Below are positions 1 to 32,568 of a stretch of DNA of 64,000 nt, piece by piece. How positions within the stretch are numbered: the stretch's first letter is position 1; each line of letters begins with the position of its first letter. The stretch is taken from the NCBI GenBank assembly GCA_018812705.1, contig JAHJCZ010000097.1:840-64839 (forward strand), given 5' to 3'. The translations under genes were made by a program, and so were the position numbers. A model generated the notes under the pieces. It did no database searches and was not told the origin of the DNA. It was given only the letters and a program-made list of their open reading frames with translations. This stretch comes from Candidatus Omnitrophota bacterium. GTDB taxonomy: Bacteria > Omnitrophota > Gorgyraeia > Zapsychrales > Zapsychraceae.

Positions 1-3000
1 AGCCAGCATTCACTATTGTCAGCAGCGCTTCCATCTGAAACAGACTTATCCATCATTAAAGCCCCGCTGTAGATCTTCCTAACTCCTCCGCCCATATCAG
101 GGAAAGTATTAATGTATGCGGCCGGAACATTGGCTGAAGCCGGAGGGTTATCAACCATCAAATCCCCACAACAGCTTGTAACAGCTCCGCAATCCTTAGG
201 ACAGCTTGTTTGGTGCTCCCCAATCAAATTATCACAAATGCCATCACCGCAAAAACCTGTTGGAGCTGGACAGTCCTGAGGACATGACACAGCATCCTCT
301 CCCCCTGCACAAACACCATCTGGACAAAGGGGACAATCCTGCCAACAGGAGCCTGAATTTTCCCCGACTTCACAAGCCCCATTAGGACAAACAGCCGCCC
401 CTCCGCCGGAACAGACCCTGCCAAGCGGGTTAAAATCAAAAGCCGTTCCCGTCTGTGGCCTTAAAGGATGGTTAAATCTAAAATCCCAGATCGGCACACC
501 ATTAGGGAAGAATGTCCTGCCCAAGTTGGTCTGGTCTTGATCTACCCTAGTAACACGAGCCTTTACAGTACCAACGTAGTTAATAATAAAGAAACATCTC
601 TTTGTTCCCCAGTTGTGCGTCTCAGTTTTAATGCTCGGCCATTCTTGAGGTCCCGTCTGCGAAGGATTACACCTTCCCTCACATCTTCCAGGAGTCCTGA
701 CATCAACCCGTACAACGTGCCAAGACCCAGAGCCGACTCCCATCGTTTCATTAAGAGGCGGGCTTTGCCAATAATAGACAGCGGCACTTGGCAAACCATT
801 GTCCGTACCATCCTCATAACTAATTCTGTACTGAATAATGTCTTGCGCAGGACCATTTAAGAAATCACTAAATTTGTTCTCAGCTGTTTGAAAAACTTCT
901 TCAATATTTTTAATTTCGGGTATTCTGTTCTCAAGGAAATTCATTCTGACCGTAAATTTTGCAACTTGGTTTTCAGCCTCTTGGTAGCTCTGATCTACCA
1001 GGTCTTTGTACCCTCCAGGAGCAACATCGGCACAAGAACCACCCGCAGTAACAATGGCATCAAGTATTCCCTGTCTAAAACCAGGCGCTGCTCCCGCATC
1101 AGTTGCCCCGTCCCACCAAAAAGAACAAGACCCCGCATTCGCAAGCTCCGGAACCGGTACCTCTGGAACGCTCGGCACCCAAGGTGACATTGGCGCAGCC
1201 ATTCCGAAGAAATTGATCAGAATGTTATGGTCAATGATAAAAGCTGGGTCTAGTGGTCCCGTTCTCGGATCATGAGCACAAAATGCCTCACAATTAACCG
1301 CACCGATCGGGCCGTCTCCGACAACAGGGTTAAACAAAGAGTTTGCACAATTGATAAACATTTGACTATCCACTGCATCCATTGTTCCTGGATAAGGCGG
1401 AACCGCAGCAGCAGCTAATAAAACGGCTGTTCTAAAATTAGTAGCAGCCCCTCCTGAACACCAGTTACTACATTCTACATTACATTGAGTAATCCAGTTG
1501 ACAATAGGATTTACCCATACAGGAACAGTGTACGGAGCAGCATTAAGGCCATAAGGATCAGTACCTCCTGGGAAAAGGCTTCCGCAAACAGTCTGACAAT
1601 CTGCAACGGACATGTCAGGATCGTCCGGTGCCGGTGGTACAAGAGTAGAAACCCCTAGAGTGTCCCTACAATTTTCAAGAGCTAGCACTACGGCATCATT
1701 GCTCGCTTGAAAAGCAATTGAATCAAAACCTGGAACTAATGACCTCGGCAAGAACTCACAATTAGCTTCATTACAATAATCCCAACATCCTTTAAACTTC
1801 TGAGCATTACCCGTTGCAACACCAGGGTCAGCACCTCCGGTTATTATTGAAACTGGCAGATATTCATTAAAATCAAGGTCGCCATCAACATCAGCTAGAT
1901 CCACTGCCAACAAAATCCTCTGATCGTTAATATTGTAATCAAGACAAGCGGCAACGTCTTCAATATCTCCGGTCACTCCGTTGACATTACTATCAAAAGT
2001 GTTTTCTTCTTTATCATGCTCTTCATGGGCGCCTGCAAAAGTAGCACATCCAGGCATTGGAACACACCACGCATCTCCACACAAGCCGCCTAAACCTACT
2101 TGTGCAACATGGCTAACCCTTAGCAAGTCCACCCTATCCCTAATTTCAGCGAGAGCCGTCAACCATTGCCACAAAATACCCTCTGTTGGGTTAGCAGCTG
2201 TTCCATAACAGTTGTAACATGCCGGGACAGATGTCCTGTCGGCAGGAGGATTTAAAGGCTCTATCCACGGGGCAAGATCTTCATACCAGGAATCAAAGTT
2301 ATTGATCAGCGATTTTTTATCTTTCATTAATAATGTCGTACCGAACCGCAAAAATTCAGAAAGCCCATAATAAACGTCCTCTAAAACATCTTCCGGCCAG
2401 TTAGCTGCAGGCTGAGCTAAAGCGTCCCCGCAAGCACAGTCAGCAGGCACTGTCTGATTGCTTCCATCTCCATCACCCCAATCATTGTCGCATGTCCAAT
2501 CTGCAGGATTATCCGGATCGCCAGCGGGAACAACAAGATGCACCCCGTTTTCATCCAACTGCTCACAAGGCATTTTGCAGCATGGACAGTCATAGGTCAA
2601 GACATTGCCGTTACCGTCATCATCTGTAGTACAGGCAATCCAATTACCAAGATCATCAAGTTCCCAACAGAGACATGGCGCACATACCCCTCCCTCTGAC
2701 TTGTCACAATTCCCAAAATACGGCCACTCTGCATCACTGGCTACATCTCCATCTGAACAAAATCTATCAGAACCTTGCTTCCAGAAACCTAAAGCGGGAT
2801 TGACAACAAGATCATCAAAAGCATCCTGGGCGCATGCACCAGCTGCAGCAATGACGTCGTTAGGAATTCTTATCCTGTCAACAGCGATCGGTGGATCTGT
2901 TGCAACTGCACTGTTTTGTGCTTGTGAAGGAACGACCCATGTCGTATCATAAGTAAGTGTAGCTGGAGCACGAGGCAGTCCTACTACTGACAATCTATTG

Positions 3001-4691
3001 GCTTCCAACTCAGGATGCTCCAATGGCCCCGCAGGTACACAAGCAGGATTTGCATCCCAGAAGCAGTTGTTTGCTGCTGAGGCACCAATACTTAGGTCCC
3101 AGCCCCAGTTAGCCATTCTCCAAAAAACAGGGTAAACGCCTTTCTTGCCATCATCGCCGTCAGGAGCATACCCTTCAAAAAAGCCAGTGACATCTTCCTC
3201 AATAAAAGAGTTAGTATCCCCTACTTGAACAATCAGGCTTCTGTCACCGGGGTTCTTGCGATAAAGCCTGTGTTCATCATCCCTTCCGATCTGTTCCCGA
3301 AGAGACCTGTAACAATCTTGTGGACAATAGTATGGGTTATCTGCGCCATCATCTCCTGCAGAGCCTTCGTTGTTTCTTGGATGATCTTCCCACACGACAT
3401 CTGCCACACCAAGATTGATTTGATCACAAGTTGCAGAAAGAGCCCCACAACAATCATTCGGGTCTGCTTGAAGACAGAAGGTCACATTTGGAACTGATGG
3501 GTCATTATTGTAATTATTCTCAACACCTGTATCAAAAATCCATTTGTATTGATTACCATTTACGATGTTGCCGTTAGAGAATGGCGCCACTTGCTGGGCA
3601 GGCGCCCCGCACGAAACAGACTCTCCACATTGACCTGCCCCAATATCACAACAAACGGGCCTTAAAGTAACATCTGTTCCTGAAAGAGGATCAACCGCGC
3701 CAACAGGAGCACAACAAAAATTTGCCTCAGAAAGCGTTGGCGTAACCGTACATGCCGGATGCGCCGCACCAACAGTAGTACACACACCATTAACAAATAG
3801 CGGGTCAGACAATCCCCACGCCTCATCGACTAGATCAGGGTTACCGTCTCCGTCATTATCAGCATGACAATCTGACGCATAAAGAGCATCATACAGGCAA
3901 TCGCCATGCATAAAATCATCTAAAGCCCTAATAAATGCAAGGATCTCAGTACCATCCGGAGTTTGAATTCTGTTGAGTCTTTGGGTGTAATAAAAACCAA
4001 ATCTTGAAACCATATCATTTGGCACAAGCCCCGTAAAACCCCAATTTCTATCAGTATCCATATCATAAACATCGGCAACCTCACCCGGATCAGTAATAAC
4101 TGTTTGAAGGGCTGTCCTAACACCACTTTCGACAAATTGATTCTTAAGCGACATCGTCTCACCGATTATCTTGTTCCACATGCTAGTAATGCCAGGCTGA
4201 ACTACCGTTGCCTGCATGACAACTGATGCAATAGAAAGAATTATCGCAACAATCGCAAAGGCAATGATATACCCTGCCACCGCAGCAGACCCCCCACTAG
4301 TTACAGGGGCCAGAATAATAGCGATGACCGCAATAATGACAACAATGATCATGGAAATAATTGCCGTAAAAAGACTGGTCTTATCACAAACCTGAAGACT
4401 TCCCTTAAGGTTCTCTTTAACAAGCTTTTGAGCATAACTTGCCATTTGAGAAGCAAGTACACTAGCGGTTTTTTCAGCAGCCATTGAAGTCAGCGTCTTT
4501 GCGCCGCTAAGCCGTCCAAGATTTAAAGTAACCGCATAAAAAATAAGGGCGACTGCTGTCATTATTATCAGTATGATCGCAACTTGCCCTTTAGAATCAG
4601 AGGCTCTTCCTAAAGAACTCCTCTTTTTGGTTAAGGAGCAATTCAGTTTCTTTTTAAGCGCCAAGATGTGCTTGTTTATTCTCTGTATCAA
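1..4691 (-). CDS. Giant secreted Cys-rich TadG-like pseudopilin/adhesin-like protein. 3-prime end lies beyond window position 1; at least 1563 codons are in the window.
   Basis: Manual reverse-complement translation is open from a stop at 4731-4733 down to position 1. Candidate TTG start at 4691-4689 follows an AAGAGG RBS; an alternative TTG lies at 4664. The N-terminus (KKKLNCSLTKKRSSLGRASDSKGQVAIILIIMTAVALIFYAV) resembles a TadE/TadG-type class III signal plus TM. The body has many Cys and acidic Ca-binding-like motifs (DNDGDGNPD, DDDGNGN, DWGDGDG). Three C-terminal 20-aa Cys repeats are encoded at about 196-420 (CPNGACEVGENSGSCWQDCP, CPDGVCAGGEDAVSCPQDCP, CGDGICDNLIGEHQTSCPKDCG). It is absent from the ORF track, probably because no stop codon falls inside the window. 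Confidence 0.7.
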   Translation of the reverse strand, partial: MIQRINKHILALKKKLNCSLTKKRSSLGRASDSKGQVAIILIIMTAVALIFYAVTLNLGRLSGAKTLTSMAAEKTASVLASQMASYAQKLVKENLKGSLQVCDKTSLFTAIISMIIVVIIAVIAIILAPVTSGGSAAVAGYIIAFAIVAIILSIASVVMQATVVQPGITSMWNKIIGETMSLKNQFVESGVRTALQTVITDPGEVADVYDMDTDRNWGFTGLVPNDMVSRFGFYYTQRLNRIQTPDGTEILAFIRALDDFMHGDCLYDALYASDCHADNDGDGNPDLVDEAWGLSDPLFVNGVCTTVGAAHPACTVTPTLSEANFCCAPVGAVDPLSGTDVTLRPVCCDIGAGQCGESVSCGAPAQQVAPFSNGNIVNGNQYKWIFDTGVENNYNNDPSVPNVTFCLQADPNDCCGALSATCDQINLGVADVVWEDHPRNNEGSAGDDGADNPYYCPQDCYRSLREQIGRDDEHRLYRKNPGDRSLIVQVGDTNSFIEEDVTGFFEGYAPDGDDGKKGVYPVFWRMANWGWDLSIGASAANNCFWDANPACVPAGPLEHPELEANRLSVVGLPRAPATLTYDTTWVVPSQAQNSAVATDPPIAVDRIRIPNDVIAAAGACAQDAFDDLVVNPALGFWKQGSDRFCSDGDVASDAEWPYFGNCDKSEGGVCAPCLCWELDDLGNWIACTTDDDGNGNVLTYDCPCCKMPCEQLDENGVHLVVPAGDPDNPADWTCDNDWGDGDGSNQTVPADCACGDALAQPAANWPEDVLEDVYYGLSEFLRFGTTLLMKDKKSLINNFDSWYEDLAPWIEPLNPPADRTSVPACYNCYGTAANPTEGILWQWLTALAEIRDRVDLLRVSHVAQVGLGGLCGDAWCVPMPGCATFAGAHEEHDKEENTFDSNVNGVTGDIEDVAACLDYNINDQRILLAVDLADVDGDLDFNEYLPVSIITGGADPGVATGNAQKFKGCWDYCNEANCEFLPRSLVPGFDSIAFQASNDAVVLALENCRDTLGVSTLVPPAPDDPDMSVADCQTVCGSLFPGGTDPYGLNAAPYTVPVWVNPIVNWITQCNVECSNWCSGGAATNFRTAVLLAAAAVPPYPGTMDAVDSQMFINCANSLFNPVVGDGPIGAVNCEAFCAHDPRTGPLDPAFIIDHNILINFFGMAAPMSPWVPSVPEVPVPELANAGSCSFWWDGATDAGAAPGFRQGILDAIVTAGGSCADVAPGGYKDLVDQSYQEAENQVAKFTVRMNFLENRIPEIKNIEEVFQTAENKFSDFLNGPAQDIIQYRISYEDGTDNGLPSAAVYYWQSPPLNETMGVGSGSWHVVRVDVRTPGRCEGRCNPSQTGPQEWPSIKTETHNWGTKRCFFIINYVGTVKARVTRVDQDQTNLGRTFFPNGVPIWDFRFNHPLRPQTGTAFDFNPLGRVCSGGGAAVCPNGACEVGENSGSCWQDCPLCPDGVCAGGEDAVSCPQDCPAPTGFCGDGICDNLIGEHQTSCPKDCGAVTSCCGDLMVDNPPASANVPAAYINTFPDMGGGVRKIYSGALMMDKSVSDGSAADNSECW

Positions 4692-4828
4692 TTCACATAC
4701 CTCTTTAAAAACTATTTTTTCTATTCTACATCAAAAACAAATCTTTTAAAAAGCTTTAATTCTTTTTCTATCTCTCTGTTCCAACACTGTCTTTCTATCA
4801 TTAACCAACAACAAAACATCCAGAACTA

Positions 4829-5068
4829 TTATGGCATCCAAATCGCGTTCAGCGGGATAGGCTCGTAAAAATACGTATCCAGCTGCTGCCCAATCGACCC
4901 TCCCGACCTTAACAAATCATGATGCGCCTGTCTTCTTGCAACAGGGTCCCTTGAAACCCATCCCATGATCTGTACCATGCTCCACAGCATCAAAAGAATA
5001 ATGAACATACAGAAGGTAAATTCTATCAAAACCTGACCCTTAGATCTTTTTGCCTTTTTTAAAAACAT
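4829..5068 (-). CDS. TadE-like minor pseudopilin (79 aa)
   Basis: N-terminal KRSKGQVLIEFTFCMFIILLML matches the TadE/Flp-type prepilin motif (G then xxxxE[FY]) followed by a hydrophobic helix. It lies between two other pseudopilin-like genes. Confidence 0.55.
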   Translation of the reverse strand: MFLKKAKRSKGQVLIEFTFCMFIILLMLWSMVQIMGWVSRDPVARRQAHHDLLRSGGSIGQQLDTYFYEPIPLNAIWMP

Positions 5069-5101
5069 TGACTTTTTCCCTTTTTTCTCTGTTCAAAGTA
5101 C

Positions 5102-6439
5102 TTATCGCATAAATTCAACGTACGGTTCGTCGGTTGTATCAGTAACCCATCTACGTCCACGTCTATCCGCTATTCTGCTCCTAATAAAAATGTACCTGTC
5201 TCTAATTGCCATGCAGGTAAGAGGCGTATTCCCGCCAAAACATTCTTGCCGCATGTTAACACAAACCTCAATGGGATTTGGCACGCTAGTATCGTCCCCA
5301 ACAAAAGGCGGGACCGTTCGATCAGCATTACAGAACCTCCCGGGTGTAAAATTGCTTAACAGTACCTCCCTTTGAATAATATCAACCTGATCTTTCTTTT
5401 TGGCTGTTCTAATAAACTGTCTTCCTGGAGAGGTCGCATAAAGACGTCCTTCTTCTATTAATGCATAAGTGCCTTCTTCTCCCGGCCTTTGCCCTCTTAA
5501 GAATGTAAAGACCTCCGTATCTCTTTGAAGACCTGGCCGTTCACCGGGGTCCCCTTCTTCCCAAGTACCATCAATATCTCCAGCACCATAATCAATAGCA
5601 TGTATTGAAGTAACAACTCCGTTTGCATCTGAAGTTACGCTGTAAACCGTTTCTTCCATGTAATCTCCATCAACATCATAAGACACCTGTGATGTTTCCA
5701 TCGCAACGTTTCCAGGAAGAAGCGTTCCTCCTCCAGCTTTAGTTTCAAAAGCATATCTGATTTTCCATTGCCAAGAGAAATTGGACCTCATTGCTACTGG
5801 CACCTCGCTCGAGTCTCCATCTCTGTCAAGATCAAAACACGCGTCACAGCCTGCATCCCAATCATCTATGCCAGGGTGATTAGGAATTTTCTCGTAAACA
5901 GCAACGCAGCCAACAATAGCGCCCGATGCTAATCTTGCACAATTGTCTTGCCATGTAGGATGTCCATCGACTAACCCTCCAATGTTTGTAAAACTGGCGC
6001 TTGAAAAAGGAAAATGTTGACCATTTATCCAATAGTCCGTAACTGATAAACTGAAATTTTCATTGGAATCAATGTTAAGAAATAGGTTTCTGCTGTGCGT
6101 GCCTGATCCTGACAGCATGTAAGGAACTCTATCGACTGTACCATATTTCGCGCTTGAGGCAGTTAGCCTGTCTTCGATCAAAACAACCGCAGCCGAATTT
6201 CTTGAAGCATTATTATCGCCATGACTTCCCATCTGTCCTGAAGTGTACATGTACGACATTCTCATTGCCATTCTCATTGCCTTCAAAGCCTGGCCCTGCT
6301 GATATCCATAACCAAGCGCGCTTCGAACAATAAGACCCATCGTAAAAATAAATATTGATCCAAAAACCGCCAATTCCATTGCGGTTTGGCCCGATTCTTT
6401 GACCAGCTTAAAATAACGTTTCTTTCTAAATAAGTTCAT
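5102..6439 (-). CDS. TadE/TadF-like pseudopilin with large C-terminal extracellular domain (445 aa)
   Basis: N-terminus ESGQTAMELAVFGSIFIFTMGLIV fits a TadE-like prepilin. The C-terminal domain is rich in Asp/Gly motifs (DLDRDGDSSE, DVDGDYMEE, GAGDIDGTWEEGDPGE) suggestive of Ca binding. Confidence 0.6.
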   Translation of the reverse strand: MNLFRKKRYFKLVKESGQTAMELAVFGSIFIFTMGLIVRSALGYGYQQGQALKAMRMAMRMSYMYTSGQMGSHGDNNASRNSAAVVLIEDRLTASSAKYGTVDRVPYMLSGSGTHSRNLFLNIDSNENFSLSVTDYWINGQHFPFSSASFTNIGGLVDGHPTWQDNCARLASGAIVGCVAVYEKIPNHPGIDDWDAGCDACFDLDRDGDSSEVPVAMRSNFSWQWKIRYAFETKAGGGTLLPGNVAMETSQVSYDVDGDYMEETVYSVTSDANGVVTSIHAIDYGAGDIDGTWEEGDPGERPGLQRDTEVFTFLRGQRPGEEGTYALIEEGRLYATSPGRQFIRTAKKKDQVDIIQREVLLSNFTPGRFCNADRTVPPFVGDDTSVPNPIEVCVNMRQECFGGNTPLTCMAIRDRYIFIRSRIADRRGRRWVTDTTDEPYVEFMR

Positions 6440-6483
6440 ATCGCCCCTAAAACCATCAGCTTCTGAAAACCTTGAAAATAAAC

Positions 6484-6798
6484 TTAATATGCCCCAGAGG
6501 AAACATATCCAGATTTTGTTTCAACAACATTTGTCATATCTCTTCGAGATGTCCACCAACCTTCAGATGTGTTTAAAGAAATGATCTGCGTGTCCGTGTT
6601 TGAAACTATCCTATGGACGACCATTGTGTTTCCCGTTCTAGGATCATACTGTTCTCCTAGTTCGTCAACTGCAGTTTTCCATCTTCCCTGCAATCCTCTT
6701 TTAAAATAATTACCTATTGATAAAAAAGCTGCAAGAATAACTGTCATCAAGACCAGAAACTCCATTGATGTTTGCCCTTTTTTTATTAGTTTAAACAT
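6484..6798 (-). CDS. Flp-family type IVb pilin, extended (104 aa)
   Basis: KKGQTSMEFLVLMTVILAAFLS carries the Flp prepilin motif (G/xxxxE[YF] plus hydrophobic helix). It shares the YFKRGLQGRWKTAVDELGEQ block with its paralogues. Confidence 0.7.
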   Translation of the reverse strand: MFKLIKKGQTSMEFLVLMTVILAAFLSIGNYFKRGLQGRWKTAVDELGEQYDPRTGNTMVVHRIVSNTDTQIISLNTSEGWWTSRRDMTNVVETKSGYVSSGAY

Positions 6799-6831
6799 AA
6801 TATCTCCTGTTTCAATAGCAACTTCACTTTT

Positions 6832-7182
6832 TTAATCGTTCTCTTGAAAACCTAAACCTGTTTCAGTCGTTGATTCAGAATGCATCCGATCATTATAGTA
6901 ATGAGTTACGACGCCAGCACTTTCTCCTCTTGTTGTTTCTGTTGCCGCGTCAACATCAACAAAAGCATTTACCATGAACCCTTCTTCTATGTCAAAAATC
7001 TGATCCGCATTCCTTTGAGTTCCAATTTGATCGGCAACTGTCTTTATCATTCCCTGCGTGCCTCTTTTAAGGAACGTCCCCATATTAAAAAATATAACCG
7101 TAACCATTCCGACTATTAATGAGTACTCCAGAATGCTTTGAGCCTTATTATTTTTCCAAAATTTCAAATTTACCTTAAACAT
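6832..7182 (-). CDS. Flp-family pilin paralogue, extended (116 aa)
   Basis: NNKAQSILEYSLIVGMVTVIFF Flp motif, plus the conserved FLKRGTQGMIKTVADQIGTQ block. Confidence 0.7.
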   Translation of the reverse strand: MFKVNLKFWKNNKAQSILEYSLIVGMVTVIFFNMGTFLKRGTQGMIKTVADQIGTQRNADQIFDIEEGFMVNAFVDVDAATETTRGESAGVVTHYYNDRMHSESTTETGLGFQEND

Positions 7183-7203
7183 TTTTCCCTCTAAACTAGC
7201 GTA

Positions 7204-7587
7204 CTATTCATATTCCCTATCTGCTTCCCTTGGAGGCTTTGTCACGCTTGTTGTCATTATTCTTGAAAGATCATCATATTCCATTCTGTAAACGCCGCTA
7301 GTGCCTCCCTCGGCAAGAGAAGTTCTTGATCTAAGGCTACGATAAGTTTCTGAATCAGTGTTCTGATAATAAGGCTCATAATGAAAGAATATGTTGCCAT
7401 TGAAGAAACCTGCTGATTGATTTCTTGTGAGCCTGACCATTGAATCTCTGGCATCATAAATTCTTCCCTGAACCACCCTTTGAAAATATGTACTCATTGC
7501 TGTTATTACTCCGATAGCAACAAAAAAAACTATAACATATTCCCCCATAACCGCCTGAGCTTTATTATTTTTAATAATTCTTAGCAT
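7204..7587 (-). CDS. Flp-family pilin paralogue, extended (127 aa)
   Basis: NNKAQAVMGEYVIVFFVAIGVITAM Flp motif. It shares YEPYYQNTDSETY with the 8281..8643 paralogue. Confidence 0.65.
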   Translation of the reverse strand: MLRIIKNNKAQAVMGEYVIVFFVAIGVITAMSTYFQRVVQGRIYDARDSMVRLTRNQSAGFFNGNIFFHYEPYYQNTDSETYRSLRSRTSLAEGGTSGVYRMEYDDLSRIMTTSVTKPPREADREYE

Positions 7588-7780
7588 AAAAAATGCTTCC
7601 CCTTAAAAATTTTAATAGTCATATAATAAGTATACATTATTTTTATCTGATTGAATAGAGTAGGTATCTTTTTTTTGGATTGATAACTTTAACAGTACCA
7701 TAAACTTAAAGAAATCCCTTTTATTGTTTTTGCACAATTTAACAAAAAACCAACTCAAAAATAAAAAACACAGAATCTTT

Positions 7781-7836
7781 TTTTTACGCAAAAAAAAATC
7801 CGGCTTGCCGAAAAACTATTTCTCGACAAACCGGAT
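7781..7836 (-). terminator. Rho-independent terminator on the minus strand between the flp sub-operons
   Basis: Read on the minus strand: ATCCGGTTTG, 19-nt loop, CAAGCCGGAT (10-bp stem with one G-U), then TTTTTTTT. It sits just downstream of the pilin gene ending at 7881. Confidence 0.6.
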
Positions 7837-7880
7837 CTATGTTTCAAACTAAGAACCTATTTTTTACAAAACACCGTTTA

Positions 7881-8249
7881 TTAGCTTCCCCAATATTCTT
7901 GCTCAATATTAGCAATTCTTGAAGTTCCTTGGGTAACTGTTGCTTCGTCGTTAAGTAAAGATGAAGTTACAACGCCGCCGATATTTGTATCAGACGTATA
8001 ACTTACAGTTCTTACTGTTTTTTGTACGTTTGTGTTTCCAGGGGAGAATTGCTCTCCGATATCATCAGCCGCACCTTTTAAGCGACCCTGAATACCTCTC
8101 TTAATGTAGACCTGAATAGAGACAAGAGCACCAATGATAATAATTATCAAAATTGCATATTCTAGTGTGCTCTGGCCTTTCTTTCTTCTTCTATTTAAAT
8201 ATTCAAACATTGTTTTAGCCTCCTTAATTTTACCTCTTCTAAAGAGCAC
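7881..8249 (-). CDS. Flp-family pilin paralogue (true start probably the internal Met at about 8210, MFEYLNRRRKKGQSTLEY)
   Basis: KKGQSTLEYAILIIIIIGALVS Flp motif and the IKRGIQGRLKGAADDIGEQFSP conserved block. Confidence 0.7.
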   Translation of the reverse strand: MLFRRGKIKEAKTMFEYLNRRRKKGQSTLEYAILIIIIIGALVSIQVYIKRGIQGRLKGAADDIGEQFSPGNTNVQKTVRTVSYTSDTNIGGVVTSSLLNDEATVTQGTSRIANIEQEYWGS

Positions 8250-8280
8250 TTCTTATGTTACTAACTGATCAGGTCTACTA

Positions 8281-8643
8281 TTAAAGACCGTTTTGAATAC
8301 CAGCAACCGATACGTCATAAGAAGTTGTCTGACGACCACCCGCTGTTCTTGTTCTAGTAGAATTTTCACCTTTCAAAATAGCATCTGCATCATAACTTTC
8401 GGTCATAGTTTCATCCCGAATAATGTTATAAGTAGTTGATAGATAATAAGGTTCATATTGTACTGTGTTGCCTAAACCATTAGTTTGTGTAGCAAGGTGC
8501 TGTGCGGCATCACGAACTCTTGCCTGCAATGCTCTTTGAGCATACGTTTGCATGGCAATAATACCAGCAACAACCAGAGATATCAAAATTGCATACTCGG
8601 CTGTGTTTTGCGCTTTTTTATTTTTAATCAATTTTCTAAGCAT
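8281..8643 (-). CDS. Flp-family pilin paralogue, extended (120 aa)
   Basis: NKKAQNTAEYAILISLVVAGIIAM Flp motif. Confidence 0.7.
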   Translation of the reverse strand: MLRKLIKNKKAQNTAEYAILISLVVAGIIAMQTYAQRALQARVRDAAQHLATQTNGLGNTVQYEPYYLSTTYNIIRDETMTESYDADAILKGENSTRTRTAGGRQTTSYDVSVAGIQNGL

Positions 8644-8702
8644 TGATTTTACCTCCTAATTTTAACTTCTCCAAATAACTGGATTCCTTCTTGTTCTCCT
8701 GA

Positions 8703-8933
8703 TTAAGGGGTACTGTTAGCAGCAGGTCTTGATGCAGCTAATCTGTCTGCCATGTCTTCCATTCCGTCTGTTCCAGAGTTGATAGTTGTGTTAAAAGCAT
8801 TCTGGAATGGCCCGCCTGGTCCTAAGAATATAATGAGCGCTGCTAAAACAGCAGCAATCAAAATAATGTACTCAACTGTGCTCTGGCCTCTTTTCTTTTT
8901 GCCAGATGTTTTATGAATCATCCTTTTAAGCAT
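8703..8933 (-). CDS. Flp-family pilin (76 aa)
   Basis: KKRGQSTVEYIILIAAVLAALIIF Flp motif. Confidence 0.7.
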   Translation of the reverse strand: MLKRMIHKTSGKKKRGQSTVEYIILIAAVLAALIIFLGPGGPFQNAFNTTINSGTDGMEDMADRLAASRPAANSTP

Positions 8934-9076
8934 TATTTATCCTCCTTCGATAATAACAATCCCTGTTACTAAACAAGGGCTTTTGCTTAATTAAGCCTAA
9001 AAATACACTAATTTTTAAGCCTTACGAAAGAATTGACTCAGAAATAATTTTCTGATCGTCTTTCCTCGCGTAAATG

Positions 9077-9268
9077 TTATTGTGATGCTTTGAATTCTTC
9101 TTGTATTACCTGCTGGGTAGCCTGAACTGACCTATACACGTAGGTACTCATAGCGACAACCGCTACGGAAATAAGAGCTGCGACCATGGCATATTCAATT
9201 AGATTTTGACCTTTATGATTCCAATTTTCCACTTTTTTGTTCCTCGCCATACCGCAACTACCTAACAT
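9077..9268 (-). CDS. Flp-family pilin (about 57 aa from the internal Met at about 9250)
   Basis: MARNKKVENWNHKGQNLIEYAMVAALISVAVVAM; classic short Flp. Confidence 0.7.
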   Translation of the reverse strand: MLGSCGMARNKKVENWNHKGQNLIEYAMVAALISVAVVAMSTYVYRSVQATQQVIQEEFKASQ

Positions 9269-9655
9269 GTCTAACAGATAACATTTGTCCCATTCTTACT
9301 AAACACTGAATCGAATTCGCGGGACTCTATTGCCGAACTTTTCGGCTCCTCTGCTTTTGACCACCGTGTCTCCGGTCTATCCCAAAAACAGAAGAATAAA
9401 ACACCTTAATGGTGTATTAACTCGAAACTATTCTGTCAAAAAACGTTACATTAATATTGGACATGAAAATAACACAAACGTCTTTCTATCCAATACTTAA
9501 AAAAGTATATCATAATAATAGCTTAAGTGTCAATAGAACCTGCTTTTATTTTTTAATTTTCAAAAAATGCAAAAAAACCCCTTTCACTATTAGTAAAGCA
9601 AAGCCAGCAAAGGCTTTGTGAAAATAGCTTTTTATTTGTTTTCCCGTCAAACATC

Positions 9656-11671
9656 CTAAGCTTTTATTTTTTGAGCACTTACAAAAAAACCCTTGCCCTC
9701 CTTTGTTACCAGATGCCTATCGTTTACTCTATTAATAGCAAATTCCAAAACCTCGAGAAAATTATACCGCTCGGGAATCATAATTGTCACAATTAATCGG
9801 TTGGGATGTTCCTGTACAAAGCCCTTTAATCCATAAAATATTGGCACCATAGTTTTTATGTCAACTGCTCCTTTTTGCTTAGGAAAATATTTATCTAAAC
9901 AATACTCATGAAGGGTTAGGATGTAGTCATCAAAAATATCTCCAAGATTCTCAAATCTTCTTTCTACAAAATCCCCAACATGGTCTTCGTGTTGGCTTTT
10001 AATAGGCTCTAGCTTGCTAATAGCATTGCTTGTTTCTTCCTTATTATAGCTCTGCTTAAATGCGCTTGGCCAACGATTTAAATAATTTGCAATAATAGTT
10101 TCAGCTTTTTCTGCAAACATATTAGTTAAAAGGGCTATTTGAGGCATCTTGTTCTTTTCTTTACCTAAAAACACCAATTTTAAAGACTTTTCCTCATTAA
10201 AATGCTTAGGAATGTTAAAAACATCATTCAAAAAGCTCGAAAATGGAACATTTTTTTCAGAATAGTACAAAATACTGTCTCTTTGGCTGTCATAATAGGA
10301 AAAATCGACAAAATCGACAAATTTTTGAATTAATTCCTTAAAAATTTCCTGATAAGGCCTAAAACCAACAATAAACGAGCGCTTAATTGAAGGAATAAGC
10401 GTAAATTCGGTAATTATGTCTTGATTTTCACTTAAAACTTCAATCTTTCGTATTTTTCTGCCAGGAATGTCAAAACAAGCAGCAACTAGCATTGAAAGAT
10501 CCTTTTTGTTAATGCCTTTTTCCCTTAAAACATCCATTACTAGGCACTCATTGTTGCTGATCAATGTTTTTGAAAGAATCGTCATTGCGCTACTTACAGA
10601 CGCAAACAATTCCTTTTGAACTAAATCTCTCCAAAGAGACCTCAGTTGAGCATCAAGTACAATGCTAGTAGAATCCTCAAAGATGACATTAAAAGCACAG
10701 ATTTTGCTTAAAGCCTGTTCCTTTTCATTAAGATATTCCAACTGCAGTTGATTGGAAAAGTCAATCTTCTGAGTCCACCCAAAAAGATTTTCTCTTCCTG
10801 GATACCCTTTAAAACCATTTAATCTCCATAAGGCGTCATTCTTTGAATTTTCAATAGTCTCAACCGATTGCATATTAAACGCTTTAAGGAATAGCAAACT
10901 TGAACAAATATTATTAAAATTCTCTAAACCCATTCCTTTTGAATTTTTTCCAAAAAGATCACCCAGAAGGTTTTCACCCGACATGTCGATCTGAGCAGCT
11001 TTTAAGAACACAACTCCCGCATTATCATACAAGTTACTATTTTTTCTTTCTTTCCCTTTATTTTCTCTCGCAATTTTTACATCATAAAGGAATTGTTCCT
11101 CGTCGAAGAATTTAGGACCAACAGGAACAACATATTCCTTCTGATATTGACTTGATAGAGCTGATTGCTCTTCTTTAATTGCTTTGTTTTCTTCTGCAAA
11201 TACTCTCTCTTCATTCTTCACTCTTTGTTCATCATAAAAGATCTTGCCCTTGCGTTTTCTTCTCTCGTGCTCCTGAAGATCAATAGAGAGCTTTTCAAGA
11301 GAAAAGACTGCCGCTTCTTTTTTTATCTCAAGGAGTTCATTAGGAACACCTTTTTTCTGTTCCTCGTTTTCTGCGGAAACCTTTTTATCAAAAGTAAAAC
11401 CAAGGCTTGAAATGCTATCTAACAATTGTTGTTTCTTTTCTGGCGGGATCTGAAATTTTTTAGAGGTTGCTTTTTTCTGGACTCTTCTTCCTACTGAACT
11501 GCTTAGCATAGTATTTTTCAAAACAGAATTCACCGAAGACTTTGATACCTTAATTTCAAATTTCTTGCTTGTCTGCTCTGATAATTGTCGACAGCTAATT
11601 AAGGGCTCTTCCTTCTTTTTGTTTATAATAAAATCAAACACTTCTTTTTTTAGCTTGTGTACTACTCCCAT
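9656..11671 (-). CDS. Hypothetical 671-aa Lys/Glu-rich protein with an HTH-like N-terminus, embedded in the Tad locus
   Basis: Long ORF with an N-terminal PLISCRQLSEQTSKKFEIKVSKSSVNSVLKN helix-turn-helix-like segment and K/E-rich low-complexity coiled-coil regions. It has no TM segments and I recognise no family. Confidence 0.45.
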   Translation of the reverse strand: MGVVHKLKKEVFDFIINKKKEEPLISCRQLSEQTSKKFEIKVSKSSVNSVLKNTMLSSSVGRRVQKKATSKKFQIPPEKKQQLLDSISSLGFTFDKKVSAENEEQKKGVPNELLEIKKEAAVFSLEKLSIDLQEHERRKRKGKIFYDEQRVKNEERVFAEENKAIKEEQSALSSQYQKEYVVPVGPKFFDEEQFLYDVKIARENKGKERKNSNLYDNAGVVFLKAAQIDMSGENLLGDLFGKNSKGMGLENFNNICSSLLFLKAFNMQSVETIENSKNDALWRLNGFKGYPGRENLFGWTQKIDFSNQLQLEYLNEKEQALSKICAFNVIFEDSTSIVLDAQLRSLWRDLVQKELFASVSSAMTILSKTLISNNECLVMDVLREKGINKKDLSMLVAACFDIPGRKIRKIEVLSENQDIITEFTLIPSIKRSFIVGFRPYQEIFKELIQKFVDFVDFSYYDSQRDSILYYSEKNVPFSSFLNDVFNIPKHFNEEKSLKLVFLGKEKNKMPQIALLTNMFAEKAETIIANYLNRWPSAFKQSYNKEETSNAISKLEPIKSQHEDHVGDFVERRFENLGDIFDDYILTLHEYCLDKYFPKQKGAVDIKTMVPIFYGLKGFVQEHPNRLIVTIMIPERYNFLEVLEFAINRVNDRHLVTKEGKGFFVSAQKIKA

Positions 11672-11706
11672 AGAAACGACCTCTTAGAAGATTTTGTTAA
11701 CATGAA

Positions 11707-11823
11707 AATGTCCATTCTGAACTATAAGATATATTATTTTTCCAGATTGGACATTGTTACATTTTTTAGTATAGCACAATACTTAAATAAACAAGCTAAA
11801 ATATTAACTTTTTTTGGACATTG
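11707..11823. promoter_or_regulatory. Three copies of a TGGACATT motif in the promoter region upstream of the 671-aa gene (candidate operator)
   Basis: AATGGACATT (reverse orientation) at 11707-11716 and TTGGACATTG at 11747-11756 and 11814-11823. A fourth copy, TTGGACATG, lies at 9457-9465 upstream of the last flp gene. Confidence 0.4.
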
Positions 11824-11824
11824 A

Positions 11825-12169
11825 TTAGCTTGAGATCTCTATCTGATCACCAATAGAAATCCCTGCGCTGAGGATAGCGCTAGAGGGAAGCTCTACAACA
11901 TAGCTTGATCTAAAATATATACGGCTAAGCTGAAAAGGCCGAATATCGCTGACTAAACCAACAACAACATTCTCTTTGCTGACAAAAACAACGTCAATAG
12001 CAAATTTCATAAAAAACATATGAATAGAATTACACCTTGTAATAACAAGAGCCTCTCCTTCTGAAAAAGATTCACGATTCAACAATCCAACCATTCTAGT
12101 TAAAAAACTATCTGCGACCTTGGCCTTATCGGCAATTATATTCTGTTTTGTTTTGTTAAGTATTTTCAA
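11825..12169 (-). CDS. DUF192 (COG1430) family protein
   Basis: GLLNRESFSEGEALVITRCNSIHMFFMKFAIDVVFVSKENVVVG matches the DUF192 core. Confidence 0.6.
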   Translation of the reverse strand: MKILNKTKQNIIADKAKVADSFLTRMVGLLNRESFSEGEALVITRCNSIHMFFMKFAIDVVFVSKENVVVGLVSDIRPFQLSRIYFRSSYVVELPSSAILSAGISIGDQIEISS

Positions 12170-12187
12170 TTATTGAAAGGATTATAG

Positions 12188-12505
12188 CTACTCTGCGGGT
12201 TTTGGTGGCAGAGCATTAGTTTTATCATTTTTCTCTGTAGCAGGCGCTTGATCTTTTATCGCCTCAGGAGCCAGTATCACAACCTCAGGAACTTCTATTT
12301 TCTCTTCAGGATTAACATAAATAGTCCGTTTATCAAAAATACTCTTTTCAATTTTTAACCCCCGAGTAACAAAATCATCGAAGCTTGTAGGGACATACCC
12401 TGTGGCTTCAAAATCTCCAATAACCCTGCCGTACGCATCGATCCCATTTGATTGTAAAGAAAAATATCTTTTAATATCAATTGGTGGTCTTCGTCCATTC
12501 CGCAA
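12188..12505 (-). pseudogene. Frameshifted C-terminal segment of the TadA/CpaF ATPase
   Basis: The overlapping frame encodes IDAYGRVIGDFEATGYVPTSFDDFVTRGL, which matches the conserved CpaF C-terminus. The main frame instead ends in a non-homologous tail. A 1-nt indel in the AAA run near 12440-12450 would join the two frames. Confidence 0.55.
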
Positions 12506-14484
12506 GTTTCAGAAATCTGTGTGACCTTTCGAGTTCCATCTGAAAAACGATTGATCTGAACGATAATATCAATCGCTGAGGCGATCATTTCATTAATAGC
12601 TCTAACAGGTAATTCAATACCACTTAAAAGAATCATAGAGTGCATACGAGTAACAACATCTCTTGTAGTATTTGCGTGCAATGTGGTCAAGGACCCGTCG
12701 TGCCCTGTATTCATAGCCTGAAGCATGTCCAAAACCTCAGGTCCGCGACACTCCCCGATAACTATGCGGTCAGGTCGCATTCTCAAACTATTAGTAAACA
12801 AATCCCTAATAGTAACTTCACCTTTTCCTTCAATATTTCTAGGTCGAGATTCCAGTCTACCACAATGGCTCTTTTTTAGCCTCAACTCAGCAGCATCCTC
12901 AATAGTGATAATCCTTTCATTATCAGGGATAAACTCGGAGACAACATTCAGTAATGTCGTTTTACCAGCACCTGTTCCTCCAGAAACAATAATATTCTTG
13001 CGGCCAATAACAGCACAATTTAAAAACAAAACCATCTCTTTTGTCACGCTGTGAAACTTGTTGAGCAAGTCATCCGTATTAAGTCTTTCAGCTCCAAACT
13101 TTCTGATAGTTATCATTGGCCCTCTCAACGAAAGTGGCGGAATAATAGCATTAATTCTTGATCCATCCGGCAAACGAGCGTCAACCATCGGAGTCGACTC
13201 ATCAATTCTTCTTCCTAAAGGAGCAATTATTCTGTCAATAATCGCCCTCATCTTGTCATCCGAAACAAAACTATAATCTGTAAGGACTAGTTTTCCCTTC
13301 TTCTCAACATATATCTCATCTCTACAATTTACCATAATATCAGTTATATCTTGATCCGCTAATAGGTCTTCTAATGGCCCTAAACCTAAGGCTTCATTAA
13401 CGATATCTCTAACCAATCGCACTCTCTCTTCGTGGGAAGATATCTTTCCGCCTGCTTCTTCCGTAAGAAGCGTCCCGACAACTCCTTCCGCCATTTTTTT
13501 AACTTTATGGATGGATTCCGGGTCACTTAAAGCCTCAAGAGAAATGCCTTCCTTGTTCAACCTGTCAACCAGCTTGAGATGAATTTTTCTCTTTAAAATG
13601 CTAATCTCATCTTCCTGAGAAGTATATGCTTTGCCTGAAGGAGCCGTACCCATTTGCTGAGCAATACCATATTTAGCCCAAAATGCTCCTGGACTAGGAA
13701 GATCTTCTTTGTTTCTTATCTTCTCAACATCCATTGCAGGGACAAAATTACTTTCTTTGCGGAAAGAATCTACTAGCTTAATAAAAGATTCTCCAACATG
13801 GCTCTTTGGATTATCAATAACACAAGGAATCCCCCTGTTAAGAGCAATGCCCACTGCCTTTCCATCGGATGGAACATGTCCAAAAATCTCACAAGTCAGA
13901 GCAGACTTAACTTCTTGCCAAGCAACACTTCCACGACTTTCAGACCTGTTCAAAAGCAGCTTGATCATTTTCATCGGAAACTGCAGGCTCTGCAGAACAT
14001 CCAAGCACCACTTTATTTGATAAACAGCCAAAATATCCGGCGTTGCCACTAATAAAATAAGGTTAGAATAGTCAAATACTGTAATAAGCGGTTCATGGAA
14101 AGCTTTCCCTGCATCAATAAGAATATAGTCATATACTTCAGATATTTTTCTAAGATAGGGTTTTATATTATCTGGCGTGATCAAACTGATTTGACGGGTA
14201 TTCTTAACTGCCGCCATAAAGTCCAATCCACAAGTATGTCGTGCAGAAAATCTTCTAATAACGGCATGATCTGTTACTGCGTCTATTTGCGAAAGAACGT
14301 CAACGATCGAGTTCTTTGGAGACAGGTTCATTGTTCGCGCCATATCCTGTCCTGCCTGAAAATCCATGTCGATCAAAAGCACTTTATATTTAGCAAGAGC
14401 CAGGGCTGTGGCCATATTAACAGCGACGAAAGTTTTGCCAACCCCACCTTTGTTACTAAAAATAGTTATTATTTTTGCACTCAT
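12355..14484 (-). CDS. Fused TadZ/CpaE-like (ParA/MinD-fold) ATPase and TadA/CpaF secretion ATPase; the C-terminus continues in another frame
   Basis: N-terminal IITIFSNKGGVGKTFVAVNMATALA deviant Walker A of the ParA/MinD family. The C-terminal half has CpaF hallmarks: Walker A GGTGAGKTTLLNV, IITIEDAAEL, GHDGSLTTLHANT, RFSDGTRKVTQISE. Confidence 0.8.
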   Translation of the reverse strand: MSAKIITIFSNKGGVGKTFVAVNMATALALAKYKVLLIDMDFQAGQDMARTMNLSPKNSIVDVLSQIDAVTDHAVIRRFSARHTCGLDFMAAVKNTRQISLITPDNIKPYLRKISEVYDYILIDAGKAFHEPLITVFDYSNLILLVATPDILAVYQIKWCLDVLQSLQFPMKMIKLLLNRSESRGSVAWQEVKSALTCEIFGHVPSDGKAVGIALNRGIPCVIDNPKSHVGESFIKLVDSFRKESNFVPAMDVEKIRNKEDLPSPGAFWAKYGIAQQMGTAPSGKAYTSQEDEISILKRKIHLKLVDRLNKEGISLEALSDPESIHKVKKMAEGVVGTLLTEEAGGKISSHEERVRLVRDIVNEALGLGPLEDLLADQDITDIMVNCRDEIYVEKKGKLVLTDYSFVSDDKMRAIIDRIIAPLGRRIDESTPMVDARLPDGSRINAIIPPLSLRGPMITIRKFGAERLNTDDLLNKFHSVTKEMVLFLNCAVIGRKNIIVSGGTGAGKTTLLNVVSEFIPDNERIITIEDAAELRLKKSHCGRLESRPRNIEGKGEVTIRDLFTNSLRMRPDRIVIGECRGPEVLDMLQAMNTGHDGSLTTLHANTTRDVVTRMHSMILLSGIELPVRAINEMIASAIDIIVQINRFSDGTRKVTQISETCGMDEDHQLILKDIFLYNQMGSMRTAGLLEILKPQGMSLQASMILLLGG

Positions 14485-16431: not shown

Positions 16432-17277
16432 CTAAAAATTAGACTCTGCTCCTGATTTAAAAATCTGTATATAAGGACGAACTTCGTCTTCCTCTTCATC
16501 TGCTTCAAAGATATTCGCCTTCTTTTGCGGGACCATCAATTCTGTTCCTTGGTGATCCATAACATATTCAGCTAAAGTATCCCAAGATGCAATTTGAAGC
16601 AACTGCAATCCACCGTCTGTTGGTGGCCTTAAAGACAGTTGTAATTTTCCATTTGCCTGAGCAAATGCAATCAATCCAGACTCTTCCGGACTAATCGCAA
16701 CTGTTATGTTAAGGGACCTGGCCTTTTGCTGTGCTTCATATGCAGGAGCGCTTCCAAGAGGCTTAAAATTAGTTCCAACTGCCAGCACTTGAATATTCTG
16801 GAATAAAACGGTAGTCACATCTTTTAAAGCTTTTGAGTCTTCCGAGTCATCAGGTATCTTTATTTCACCAATAATATCAACAAAGTCGCCTGGATTAATA
16901 AGACCTCCAACCGCTGAAAGAGAATCAACTAAAATAGTAACTGCTCTTTTTCCAGGAGGTGTTCTTACTGAAAAAGAATCCATCTGAACAACTGGCTGCG
17001 CTTTTTCAGTGGTAGCTTGTGTTGCTGCTCCTGGCTTATATTGGCTTTGCTTTGTCTCCACCTTCTTGATTTCTTCACGCTGTCTTTTGATCTCGCTTCT
17101 TAAAACCTCTATTTCTTTAGCAAAACCAGCATTTTGTTTGCCATAATCTCTTGCCAAAGCTTTTGTTTGAGCCTTAATATTGTTTTGGACATATTGGCTA
17201 GTTAAAAACGCAGCAACCAAGCCAAGCCCTATCGCGATAAGAATAATGACAAACTGTTTTTTGTTTTCAATGTTCAT
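16432..17277 (-). CDS. cpaB: Flp pilus assembly protein CpaB/RcpC. The start is probably the internal Met with a GGAGGG RBS.
   Basis: N-terminal TM (FVIILIAIGLGLVAAFL). RAVTILVDSLSAVGGLINPGDFVDIIG matches the CpaB C-terminal domain. Confidence 0.7.
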   Translation of the reverse strand: MNIENKKQFVIILIAIGLGLVAAFLTSQYVQNNIKAQTKALARDYGKQNAGFAKEIEVLRSEIKRQREEIKKVETKQSQYKPGAATQATTEKAQPVVQMDSFSVRTPPGKRAVTILVDSLSAVGGLINPGDFVDIIGEIKIPDDSEDSKALKDVTTVLFQNIQVLAVGTNFKPLGSAPAYEAQQKARSLNITVAISPEESGLIAFAQANGKLQLSLRPPTDGGLQLLQIASWDTLAEYVMDHQGTELMVPQKKANIFEADEEEDEVRPYIQIFKSGAESNF

Positions 17278-17390
17278 TGTACCCTCCGCACTGTTACCCA
17301 AAAACAATTTAAAAAACCACTCGCTCTTACAATACAAGAATTTTTATTTTTGGAAATAACAGAAGCTTGTTTTTCAATTGGCCAAAAAAT

Positions 17391-26410: not shown

Positions 26411-26458
26411 TTAAAAAACACCTTTCTATCTCTATTCTTTAGCGCTTAACACTATTAT

Positions 26459-29259
<2,801 letters not shown>

Positions 29260-29343
29260 TCTATTAATTTATTATTTTTTTCTCTGCAGGCTTATAATAA
29301 TCAAGCGTGCCCTATTTTCCTGCCCCAAAAAAACTTCCAACAA

Positions 29344-30441: not shown

Positions 30442-30583
30442 TTCCTTCCAATAACTAAGTTAAAAATCTATATAGTAACCGTATACGTAGGGCCTGTTAA
30501 TAATTTGAACAAGGCTCAAAGTTCTTTTATTTCAAGCATTTAAGAGAAAAATAGTTGTTCAAAACTTGAAGACAAACTATTAA

Positions 30584-32530: not shown

Positions 32531-32531
32531 C

Positions 32532-32559
32532 TTGACTATAAAAAGTCGTGTGATATAAT
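32532..32559 (+). promoter_or_regulatory. Sigma70-type promoter of rpmH
   Basis: TTGACT, 16-nt spacer, TGaTATAAT (extended -10). The ATG of rpmH lies about 10 nt after the -10, so the mRNA is nearly leaderless. Confidence 0.6.
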
Positions 32560-32568
32560 CTACAAATT

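Follow-up and report, generated by a model that had tools for sequence, protein, structure and literature searches.

The seven pilin-like genes

We analysed a stretch of 64,000 nucleotides (nt) of DNA from a Candidatus Omnitrophota bacterium (hereafter the window), in which seven adjacent genes for pilin-like proteins, g1 to g7, occupy positions 6484 to 9268. An earlier note on this DNA had drawn attention to the seven open reading frames (ORFs), and the ORF listing places all of them on the minus strand. Read in the direction of transcription, the first is g7 (9077-9250), a short Flp-type prepilin gene of 57 amino acids (aa), or 51 aa if GTG 9232 is used as start, followed by g6 (8703-8933), which encodes a short prepilin of 76 aa with the predicted cleavage site KRG|QSTVEY. 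The five remaining proteins are longer: g5 (8281-8643; 120 aa, YEPYY family), g4 (7881-8210; 109 aa, KRGxQGRxK family, C-terminus QEYWG), g3 (7204-7587; 127 aa, YEPYY family, with Q-x4-E spacing), g2 (6832-7182; 116 aa, KRGxQG family) and g1 (6484-6798; 104 aa, KRGxQGRWK family, with VGAY-type residues at its end). The five extended forms of 104-127 aa described before were thus recovered, with the start of g4 mended.

Window proteins were compared by blastp with all ORFs of ten genome loci, and six more loci were added through exact-protein look-ups. The nearest genome is that of Omnitrophica WOR_2 RIFOXYA2_FULL_38_17 (locus L001), whose seven pilins are 86-96% identical in aa sequence to those of the window. 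Judged from the sequence, ATG 8210, preceded by the ribosome-binding site AAGGAGG, is the most likely start of g4 and yields the 109-aa form; GTG 8249 (122 aa) is an unlikely start, and 47 homologues open with MF(K/E)YL. For g7, the reading of the DNA and the alignment of homologues make ATG 9268, the start given before, unlikely, and point to ATG 9250 or GTG 9232 as the most likely start. Just ahead of the g7 start, an A-tract has six residues in the window (A6; 9233-9241) and eight in L001 (A8; 8973-8980), where it puts the upstream ATG out of frame; this is a difference between genomes, with no sign of switching within a population.

All seven proteins display the class III prepilin feature of Flp pilins, i.e. 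a basic leader, [GA]|Q, a Glu and a Tyr or Phe, then a hydrophobic helix. The motif as first written down was real in all seven but stricter than the true one, which is [KRNH]-[KR]-[GA]-Q-x3-E-[YF]: N, H or R also occurs at position -3, and g3 has one additional residue ahead of the Glu, giving Q-x4-E in nearly all of its orthologues. The residue at -1 is Ala in g2, g3 and g5 and Gly in the others. The sequence blocks by which the proteins had been sorted into sub-families hold up as family signatures. In the g3 and g5 families YEPYY occurs without exception at every locus, and [FIL]KRGxQG-x2-K..D..G.Q is common to g1, g2, g4 and an eighth pilin gene outside the window. Identity between paralogues in the window reaches at most 46% in aa sequence (g1/g4), g3 and g5 being 38% identical, and profile comparison confined the homology of the g4 and g5 families to the first 56 residues. 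An ancient tandem duplication is suggested by the arrangement of the genes, in which YEPYY-KRG (g5-g4) precedes YEPYY-KRG-KRG (g3-g2-g1).

The designation as Flp family applied to part of the array. g7 and g6 are Flp-like and fall within the small size of Flp pilins (about 50-80 aa); g1 to g5 exceed it at 104-127 aa, lack a Pfam match above threshold and include two proteins, g4 and g5, modelled with a helix and a sheet. With the gathering threshold of Flp_Fap (PF04964) at 32.2 bits, g7 scored 28.4-28.7 bits and g2 16.8 bits, both below it, and the other five proteins had no Flp_Fap match. Among g7 and g6 orthologues, 13 of 22 matched Flp_Fap at E<=0.01, none being shown above the gathering threshold. 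Class_IIIsignal (PF04021; N-terminal model of 27 residues, threshold 23.7 bits) matched g6 at 31.4 bits, g1 at 23.4 bits (0.3 short) and g4 at 16.4 bits, and gave no match for g2, g3, g5 and g7. No match to TadE-like (PF07811; threshold 22.9 bits) was obtained among g1 to g7, N_methyl was absent in the Pfam search of the array proteins, and nothing in Pfam matched g3 or g5; NCBIfam gave no usable match for the pilin-like proteins or for the neighbouring protein p671 (see below). g7 and g6 are predicted to be short Flp-type pilins with helical mature forms of ~43 and ~60 aa, respectively.

The long forms are real proteins, as judged by their relatives and by the selection acting on them. The g4 family comprises 998 relatives of the same length at 65-95% identity, in which residues 12-61 are nearly invariant, and the g5 family 1122 relatives of ~120 aa; a g4-family profile matched 3443 clusters (at 50% identity), mostly of 100-115 aa. 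The ratio of non-synonymous to synonymous substitution rates (dN/dS), calculated like all such rates between the window and L001, was 0.08-0.32 in the C-terminal extensions. Given syntenic orthologues, relatives of equal length and purifying selection on the extensions, neither chance similarity nor an annotation artefact accounts for these genes. Nearly all homologues of g4 and g5 came from metagenome-assembled genomes (MAGs) of Candidatus Omnitrophota. Several MAGs with an Omnitrophota-type locus (L003, L007, L008, L009, L010) are labelled 'uncultured Planctomycetales' or 'Candidatus Elulimicrobium sp.'; these labels are placeholders or mis-binnings, or else the locus reaches beyond Omnitrophota.

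AlphaFold2 (AF2) was run on g4 and g5 as monomers, with family alignments as input. Both models consist of a long N-terminal helix (residues 15-52 in g4, 2-55 in g5) followed by a four-stranded antiparallel sheet, at a mean predicted local distance difference test score (pLDDT) of 70 for g4 and 77 for g5. The two proteins are therefore predicted to be small helix-plus-sheet pilins unlike the classical Flp type. Profile searches against PDB sequences gave weak matches to the N-terminus alone (Geopilin domain 1, E ~0.01; Caulobacter PilA 8u1k, E 1.1). On a second contig of the RIFOXYA2_FULL_38_17 genome (L011, 9686-11758), a g4-like N-terminal pilin helix is joined to a YfbK-like vWA protein of 690 aa in total, which is 55% identical to g4 across 62 aligned residues within residues 28-85 and recalls the vWA-bearing minor pilins of TadG/CpaL type that are encoded off the main locus.

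Conservation of the array and its transcription signals

Gene order was judged in eight related loci of sufficient length, and eight shorter loci were concordant up to their contig ends. The order is fixed: PPIase-RcpC-secretin-TadZ/CpaF-(DUF192)-p671-g7-g6-g5-g4-gap-g3-g2-g1-p445-p79-TadG-like-eighth pilin-TadB-TadC, where PPIase denotes a peptidyl-prolyl isomerase and p671, p445 and p79 are proteins described below. For each gene of the array, every locus that reaches that far holds one best orthologue in the corresponding slot, with the minor exception of L010, in which the gene in the g1 slot matches g4 best. g7 has an orthologue in every locus that reaches its position, and the g6 orthologues measure 64-79 aa in all loci. 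On these sequence comparisons the seven genes are a fixed, phylum-wide set of predicted pilins, orthologous slot by slot, and further pilin-like genes bring the set to eleven in all.

In the more distant loci, identity to the window was 51-75% for g4, 52-66% for g5, 38-68% for g6 and 57-77% for g7 (aligned mature part), and 41-58% for g1, 32-46% for g3 and 33-37% for g2. For comparison, CpaF was 65-71% and the secretin 44-52% identical in the same loci; the conservation of g4, g5 and g7 is close to that of the ATPase, and g4 tops the set. dN/dS was 0.06-0.20 for all seven genes. The synonymous rate (dS) was 0.14-0.36 in g7 to g4 versus 0.62-1.13 in g3 to g1, p445 and p79, i.e. three- to five-fold lower in the first block. 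This difference fits a stronger expression-linked constraint on the first block; codon constraint of that kind, RNA structure or a recent exchange of the block could each have produced it.

A near-consensus sigma-70 promoter with an extended -10 element (TTGACA-N18-TGaTATACT; 9504-9533, minus strand), matching the consensus at 11/12 positions, lies 253 nt upstream of g7. Promoters and terminators were counted over 15 loci. The same promoter type, again at 11/12 positions, stands before g7 in 12 of them (L001, L003-L009, L013, L015, L017 and L018, beside the window), and in each case a leader of 215-340 nt follows. In the window this 5' leader of ~250 nt (9251-9497, minus strand) is structured, with a fold z-score of -5.3 relative to shuffled controls. 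It holds an ACACC/GGUGU hairpin with a U-tract (9401-9415), a long-range helix of GUCCC with GGGAC, and a G-U-rich UUAUCU/AGGUAG hairpin, in which UUAUCU is predicted to pair with the AGGUG ribosome-binding site and so cover the Shine-Dalgarno sequence. The leader is 95% identical to that of L001, and the same blocks occur in other loci. The long-range helix shows some compensatory changes across loci (GUCCC/GGGAC, GCUCUC/GAGAGC, ACCCUU/AAGGGU, GCCCUG/CAGGGC), the covariation being moderate (6.1 versus 5.0 base pairs (bp) of complementarity for cognate versus non-cognate pairs). A search of positions 4700-12400 against Rfam gave no match save a chance sub-threshold small RNA match on the terminator. 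The leader may represent a so far undescribed RNA that regulates the pilin operon in cis.

The array is split after g4 by an intrinsic terminator, which the earlier note had placed at 7781-7836 and which we confirmed at 7838-7796 (minus strand), with a 20-bp stem and T9. It closes the g7-g4 unit, and a hairpin (-21 to -31 kcal/mol) with a T-run is found at the same place in 13/15 loci, in differing sequences. Gaps between g6 and g5 and between g5 and g4 measure 30-98 nt, and the first block contains no strong terminator-like hairpin. Beyond the terminator, the gaps among g3, g2, g1, p445 and p79 are mostly -11 to 54 nt, and the gap between g4 and g3 shows no promoter that is comparably strong or conserved. 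Instead of the at least three transcription units proposed from the window, the comparative evidence supports two: the 143-nt gap between g7 and g6, where we considered the start of a third unit, measures 21-70 nt at most of the other loci, reaches 260 nt in L008, and carries a marked hairpin (-14 kcal/mol) in L005 alone. Because promoter, leader, terminator, gaps and dS agree, we distinguish two tiers of expression. Differential expression, as first suggested, is accordingly retained in the sense that the terminator splits the array and the two blocks are likely to be expressed unequally; the suggested phase variation is taken up below.

The surrounding Tad locus

The conserved locus begins with a SurA-like PPIase (Rotamase_2; 17391-18326; this and the genes that follow are on the minus strand). 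Domain searches identified next to it RcpC/CpaB (16432-17337) and an RcpA/CpaC-type secretin with a C-terminal TonB_C domain (14541-16193), an architecture that recurs in L013 and L015-L018. These are followed by a fusion of a TadZ-like (ParA/MinD) domain and the CpaF/TadA ATPase (12355-14484; 709 aa, AAA_31/ParA at residues 4-240 and T2SSE at 366-646), which is found in all related loci (~720 aa). TadB and TadC, both with a T2SSF domain, come later in the related loci. The locus is thus of Tad type by its components, with RcpC, secretin and TadZ-CpaF in the window and TadB and TadC in the orthologous loci.

Between the ATPase gene and the array lie a DUF192 protein gene (11825-12169), syntenic in several loci, and p671 (9656-11671), a protein of 671 aa with a weak N-terminal helix-turn-helix match. 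p671 always stands between the ATPase gene and the pilin promoter, and it might act as regulator of the locus. It is a fast-evolving protein, with 67% identity in the closest relative and, along its full length, 23-29% in the other loci.

On the other side of the array, p445 (5102-6439) encodes a large pilin-like protein with the N-terminus G|QTAMEL, a candidate tip or minor pilin whose orthologues of 421-580 aa occupy the same slot. The small pilin-like protein p79 (4829-5068; KG|QVLIEF) has syntenic orthologues and scores 17.2 bits against TadE, under the threshold of 22.9. The next gene (3-4691) encodes a Cys-rich, TadG-like large protein with a TTG start and more than 1560 aa, cut by the end of the window. 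Its N-terminus, KG|QVAIIL, leads into a hydrophobic helix, with the Glu at +5 missing; orthologues have 950-1600 aa, and that of L001 has 1555-1598 aa. We had considered this ORF as one of the Omnitrophota 'giant genes' and dropped the idea, as orthologues of just 950-1600 aa with a pilin-like N-terminus mark it as TadG-like. Its GC content is ~47%, against ~36% in its neighbours. The eighth pilin, of ~95-145 aa and Cys-rich, lies beyond the window.

The locus adjoins oriC, and the window spans the replication origin, with the minimum of cumulative GC skew at ~31-32 kb. Around 23960-31918 and 31919-32893, gyrA, gyrB, dnaN and dnaA, assigned by position and size, lie on the minus strand, and yidC, parA and parB on the plus strand. 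The gap upstream of dnaA holds only two DnaA boxes matching at 8 of 9 positions (32030-32049).

Proposed function of the pilin set and comparison with known systems

We favour, with moderate confidence, a reading in which a Tad (type IVc) pilus machine, conserved across Candidatus Omnitrophota, draws its fixed complement of pilins from these seven genes, and their products are specialised subunits. All seven would be made as prepilins with a short basic leader; a prepilin peptidase, its gene lying elsewhere in the genome, would cut them after the Gly or Ala of [KR]-[GA]|Q, and the hydrophobic helix would hold them in the inner membrane. The fused TadZ-CpaF ATPase would polymerise them on the TadB/TadC platform, and the product would leave through RcpC and the secretin. 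The subunits would form three groups, namely g7 and g6 of short Flp type, g5 and g3 with YEPYY, and g4, g2 and g1 with KRGxQGRxK, as specialised parts of one set and not as alternatives to one another. In the first tier, the strong promoter and the leader, which may mask the ribosome-binding site, would drive g7-g6-g5-g4 up to the strong terminator, and this block probably provides the abundant fibre subunits. In the second tier, g3-g2-g1 are tightly packed with p445, p79, the TadG-like gene, the eighth pilin, TadB and TadC; this tier is probably expressed at a lower level, via read-through or weak promoters, and probably yields minor pilins for assembly priming and for the tip.

Several points weigh against this proposal. 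Neither the window nor any of the loci retrieved contained a gene for an A24 or other prepilin peptidase, and g1 to g5 reach the threshold of no Pfam or NCBIfam model. The AF2 monomers are of moderate confidence (pLDDT 70 and 77, predicted template-modelling score ~0.3), which makes the sheet domain provisional, and a Foldseek search of the g4 and g5 models against PDB gave no significant match; the best hits, levivirus coat proteins and hairpins of pore-forming toxins, had E ~1. Expression levels were read from sequence signals alone, and these do not single out the major subunit among g7, g6, g5 and g4, or a fibre mixed from them. Moreover, the subunits of an exposed fibre are not usually as strongly conserved as g4 and g5 are, and a non-exposed pseudopilus would also fit.

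That last point leads to the main rival, which we consider unlikely, namely that the locus encodes an exporter resembling a type II secretion system (T2SS). Here the conserved g4 and g5, with or without g7 and g6, would build a short periplasmic pseudopilus that pushes large adhesins or enzymes (the TadG-like protein, or the giant proteins whose genes lie close by in other Omnitrophota) out by way of the secretin, and the remaining pilin-like proteins would form the pseudopilus tip, as GspH-K do. The conservation of g4, g5 and g7 at about the level of the ATPase speaks for such an arrangement. The major pseudopilin GspG is highly conserved, and most exposed pilins are not. One abundant subunit alongside several low-level ones likewise resembles GspG with GspH-K. 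West-Roberts et al. (bioRxiv 10.1101/2023.11.21.568195) call the conserved locus T2SS-like and place it beside giant genes, and a complete-genome preprint of 2026 reports the same association with giant genes. Against an exporter stand the machinery, which is of Tad type (RcpC, TadZ, CpaF and two single-domain TadB/TadC proteins), and the fact that neither GspC/L/M nor a prepilin motif of the N-methyl type was seen. The neighbouring large protein has, in this lineage, a pilin-like N-terminus, as would suit a tip pilin of TadG type more than a cargo, and no cargo was identified.

A more doubtful alternative is that some of g1 to g5 are not filament subunits at all, but membrane-anchored or released proteins of the periplasm or surface that use a class III signal peptide only to be matured by the peptidase, as many archaeal class III signal proteins do. 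The best Pfam matches of g1, g4 and g6 are indeed to the archaeal-type Class_IIIsignal and not to Flp_Fap, and the L011 protein, from the closest relative, shows the same N-terminal module fused to a YfbK-like vWA protein. Yet in g4 the whole amphipathic helix (residues 12-61) is nearly invariant, well beyond the needs of a signal or anchor and in keeping with helix-helix packing in a filament, the Glu at +5 is conserved, and every locus has these genes lodged between those for the ATPase and the platform.

The view of the earlier note, a repertoire of antigenically distinct pilins expressed alternatively or by phase variation, is very improbable. In its favour, the array holds several paralogues that diverge in their C-terminal parts and is interrupted by a terminator and AT-rich gaps, and the A6 or A8 tract at the 5' end of g7, which changes the start codon that is in frame, is its sole loose end. 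Against it, one-to-one orthology and order are fixed across genomes in which CpaF is just 65-71% identical, copy number and order are the same in all loci long enough, dN/dS of 0.06-0.20 gives no sign of diversifying selection, and apart from CpaF no protein of the locus is more conserved than the pilins of the first block. The means of variation are missing as well. The longest DNA matches between paralogues are 17-45 nt at 73-94% identity, with no silent cassettes, so that recombination finds no substrate; no inverted repeats flank the promoter, those present in the array being weak and AT-rich, and the window has no recombinase; simple-sequence repeats are absent, and homopolymers are of 7-9 nt and mostly intergenic or in the terminator, with one A8/T8 (7522-7529) inside g3. 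On each feature tested, from recombination substrates and invertible elements to repeat tracts, diversifying selection and the turnover of copies, the claim of variation fails.

The fixed pilin complement that we favour could also be taken further, to a new type of filament with a mixed shaft of two all-helical Flp proteins and two helix-and-sheet 'mini-pilins', a large tip of many pilins, gating by the leader RNA and a role in attachment to host or prey. In this version, which we regard as speculative and improbable as a whole, the mini-pilin families are so far known from Omnitrophota alone and the leader RNA occludes the ribosome-binding site from which g7, the first pilin gene, is translated; if true, the organelle would be how these ultra-small cells attach to their hosts or prey.

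The closest known systems are the Tad loci of Aggregatibacter, ordered flp-1/flp-2-tadV-rcpCAB-tadZABCDEFG, and of Caulobacter (pilA-cpa). They share with the Omnitrophota locus the G|XXXXE[YF] motif with its hydrophobic helix, RcpC, an RcpA-type secretin, TadZ, CpaF/TadA and TadB/TadC, short helical pilins (here, by prediction, g7 and g6) and extra pilin-like proteins of TadE/F/G type, and the terminator after the pilin genes recalls the 'termination cascade' of the Aggregatibacter tad locus. They differ in having one to three flp genes plus tadE/F/G where the Omnitrophota have seven pilin-like genes, eleven with the others. Five of these encode mid-sized proteins below the Pfam threshold, two of them modelled with helix and sheet. 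Further differences are the Gln at +1 and, in three proteins, the Ala at -1, the fusions of TadZ with CpaF and of the secretin with TonB_C, the position of pilin genes between ATPase and platform genes, and the absence of tadV from the Omnitrophota locus.

Compared with T2SS pseudopilins and type IVa minor pilins, the array would offer a similar division into one abundant conserved subunit (GspG) and low-abundance paralogues that prime or cap (GspH-K), and its models show a similar general shape of helix plus small sheet. Those pseudopilins in turn have a different motif, G|F-T-L-x-E with N-methylation, and ATPase and platform proteins of other families, and no N_methyl match was obtained here. 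The KG|Q-x-S-x-E-type N-terminus with Gln at +1 is also that of archaeal class III signal (DUF361/PF04021) pilins of EppA-dependent pili, Gln at +1 being typical of archaeal pilins. The host here is a diderm bacterium with secretin, RcpC and TadZ, and the likeness, limited to ~25 residues at the N-terminus, probably goes back to a common origin of Tad and archaeal pili.

Sets of non-equivalent Flp pilins are known from predatory bacteria. In Bdellovibrio bacteriovorus, flp1 to flp4 are not interchangeable and are differently regulated; they are four short genes, two of them outside the tad locus, described as the largest type IVb complement then known (PMC5430801). The Omnitrophota array is larger, clustered and composed mainly of longer proteins. 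The Kil Tad pilus of Myxococcus xanthus has a major Flp of 97 aa (KilP), the short, low-level adapter Flps KilK and KilO, and at its tip the TadE/F/G-like pilins KilLMN, including a very large disulfide-rich one (PMC12075869). It resembles the present system as a Tad machine in a predator, with long pilins and many pilin-like proteins of distinct roles (a suspected predator and proposed roles in our case), and p445, p79 and the Cys-rich TadG-like protein may, by analogy, be the counterparts of its tip. KilP is predicted to be all-helical, unlike g4 and g5 with their predicted sheet, and the Kil pilin and tip genes lie in several scattered clusters, unlike the single Omnitrophota locus of fixed order. 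Past the N-terminal helix, no homology in sequence to the Kil proteins was shown.

Within the phylum, Tad complexes have been reported by Seymour 2023 (PMC10066038), and that work and West-Roberts et al. (bioRxiv 10.1101/2023.11.21.568195) had already noted the same conserved locus with PPIase (Rotamase_2), rcpC, secretin, ATPase and GspF/TadBC, the latter authors also noting the SurA-like PPIase. In the portions available, these descriptions do not resolve the small genes into orthologous families, folds, or an operon of two tiers with promoter, leader and terminator. The seven (eleven) orthologous pilin families, the helix-plus-sheet prediction, the two signature motifs and the conserved promoter-leader-terminator architecture therefore appear to be new. 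Omnitrophota are widespread, uncultured, ultra-small and suspected to be predators or parasites, and the Tad locus is among the few conserved candidates for contact with a host. The 'many small class III signal genes' of the literature become a fixed set of eleven pilin-like genes in defined families and two expression tiers, which points proteomics, structural modelling and the imaging of enrichment cultures to defined targets. Antigenic or phase variation, the more exciting reading, is removed and no new principle emerges; what the Omnitrophota array does, set beside the systems compared here, is to widen the known range of Tad pilin architecture.

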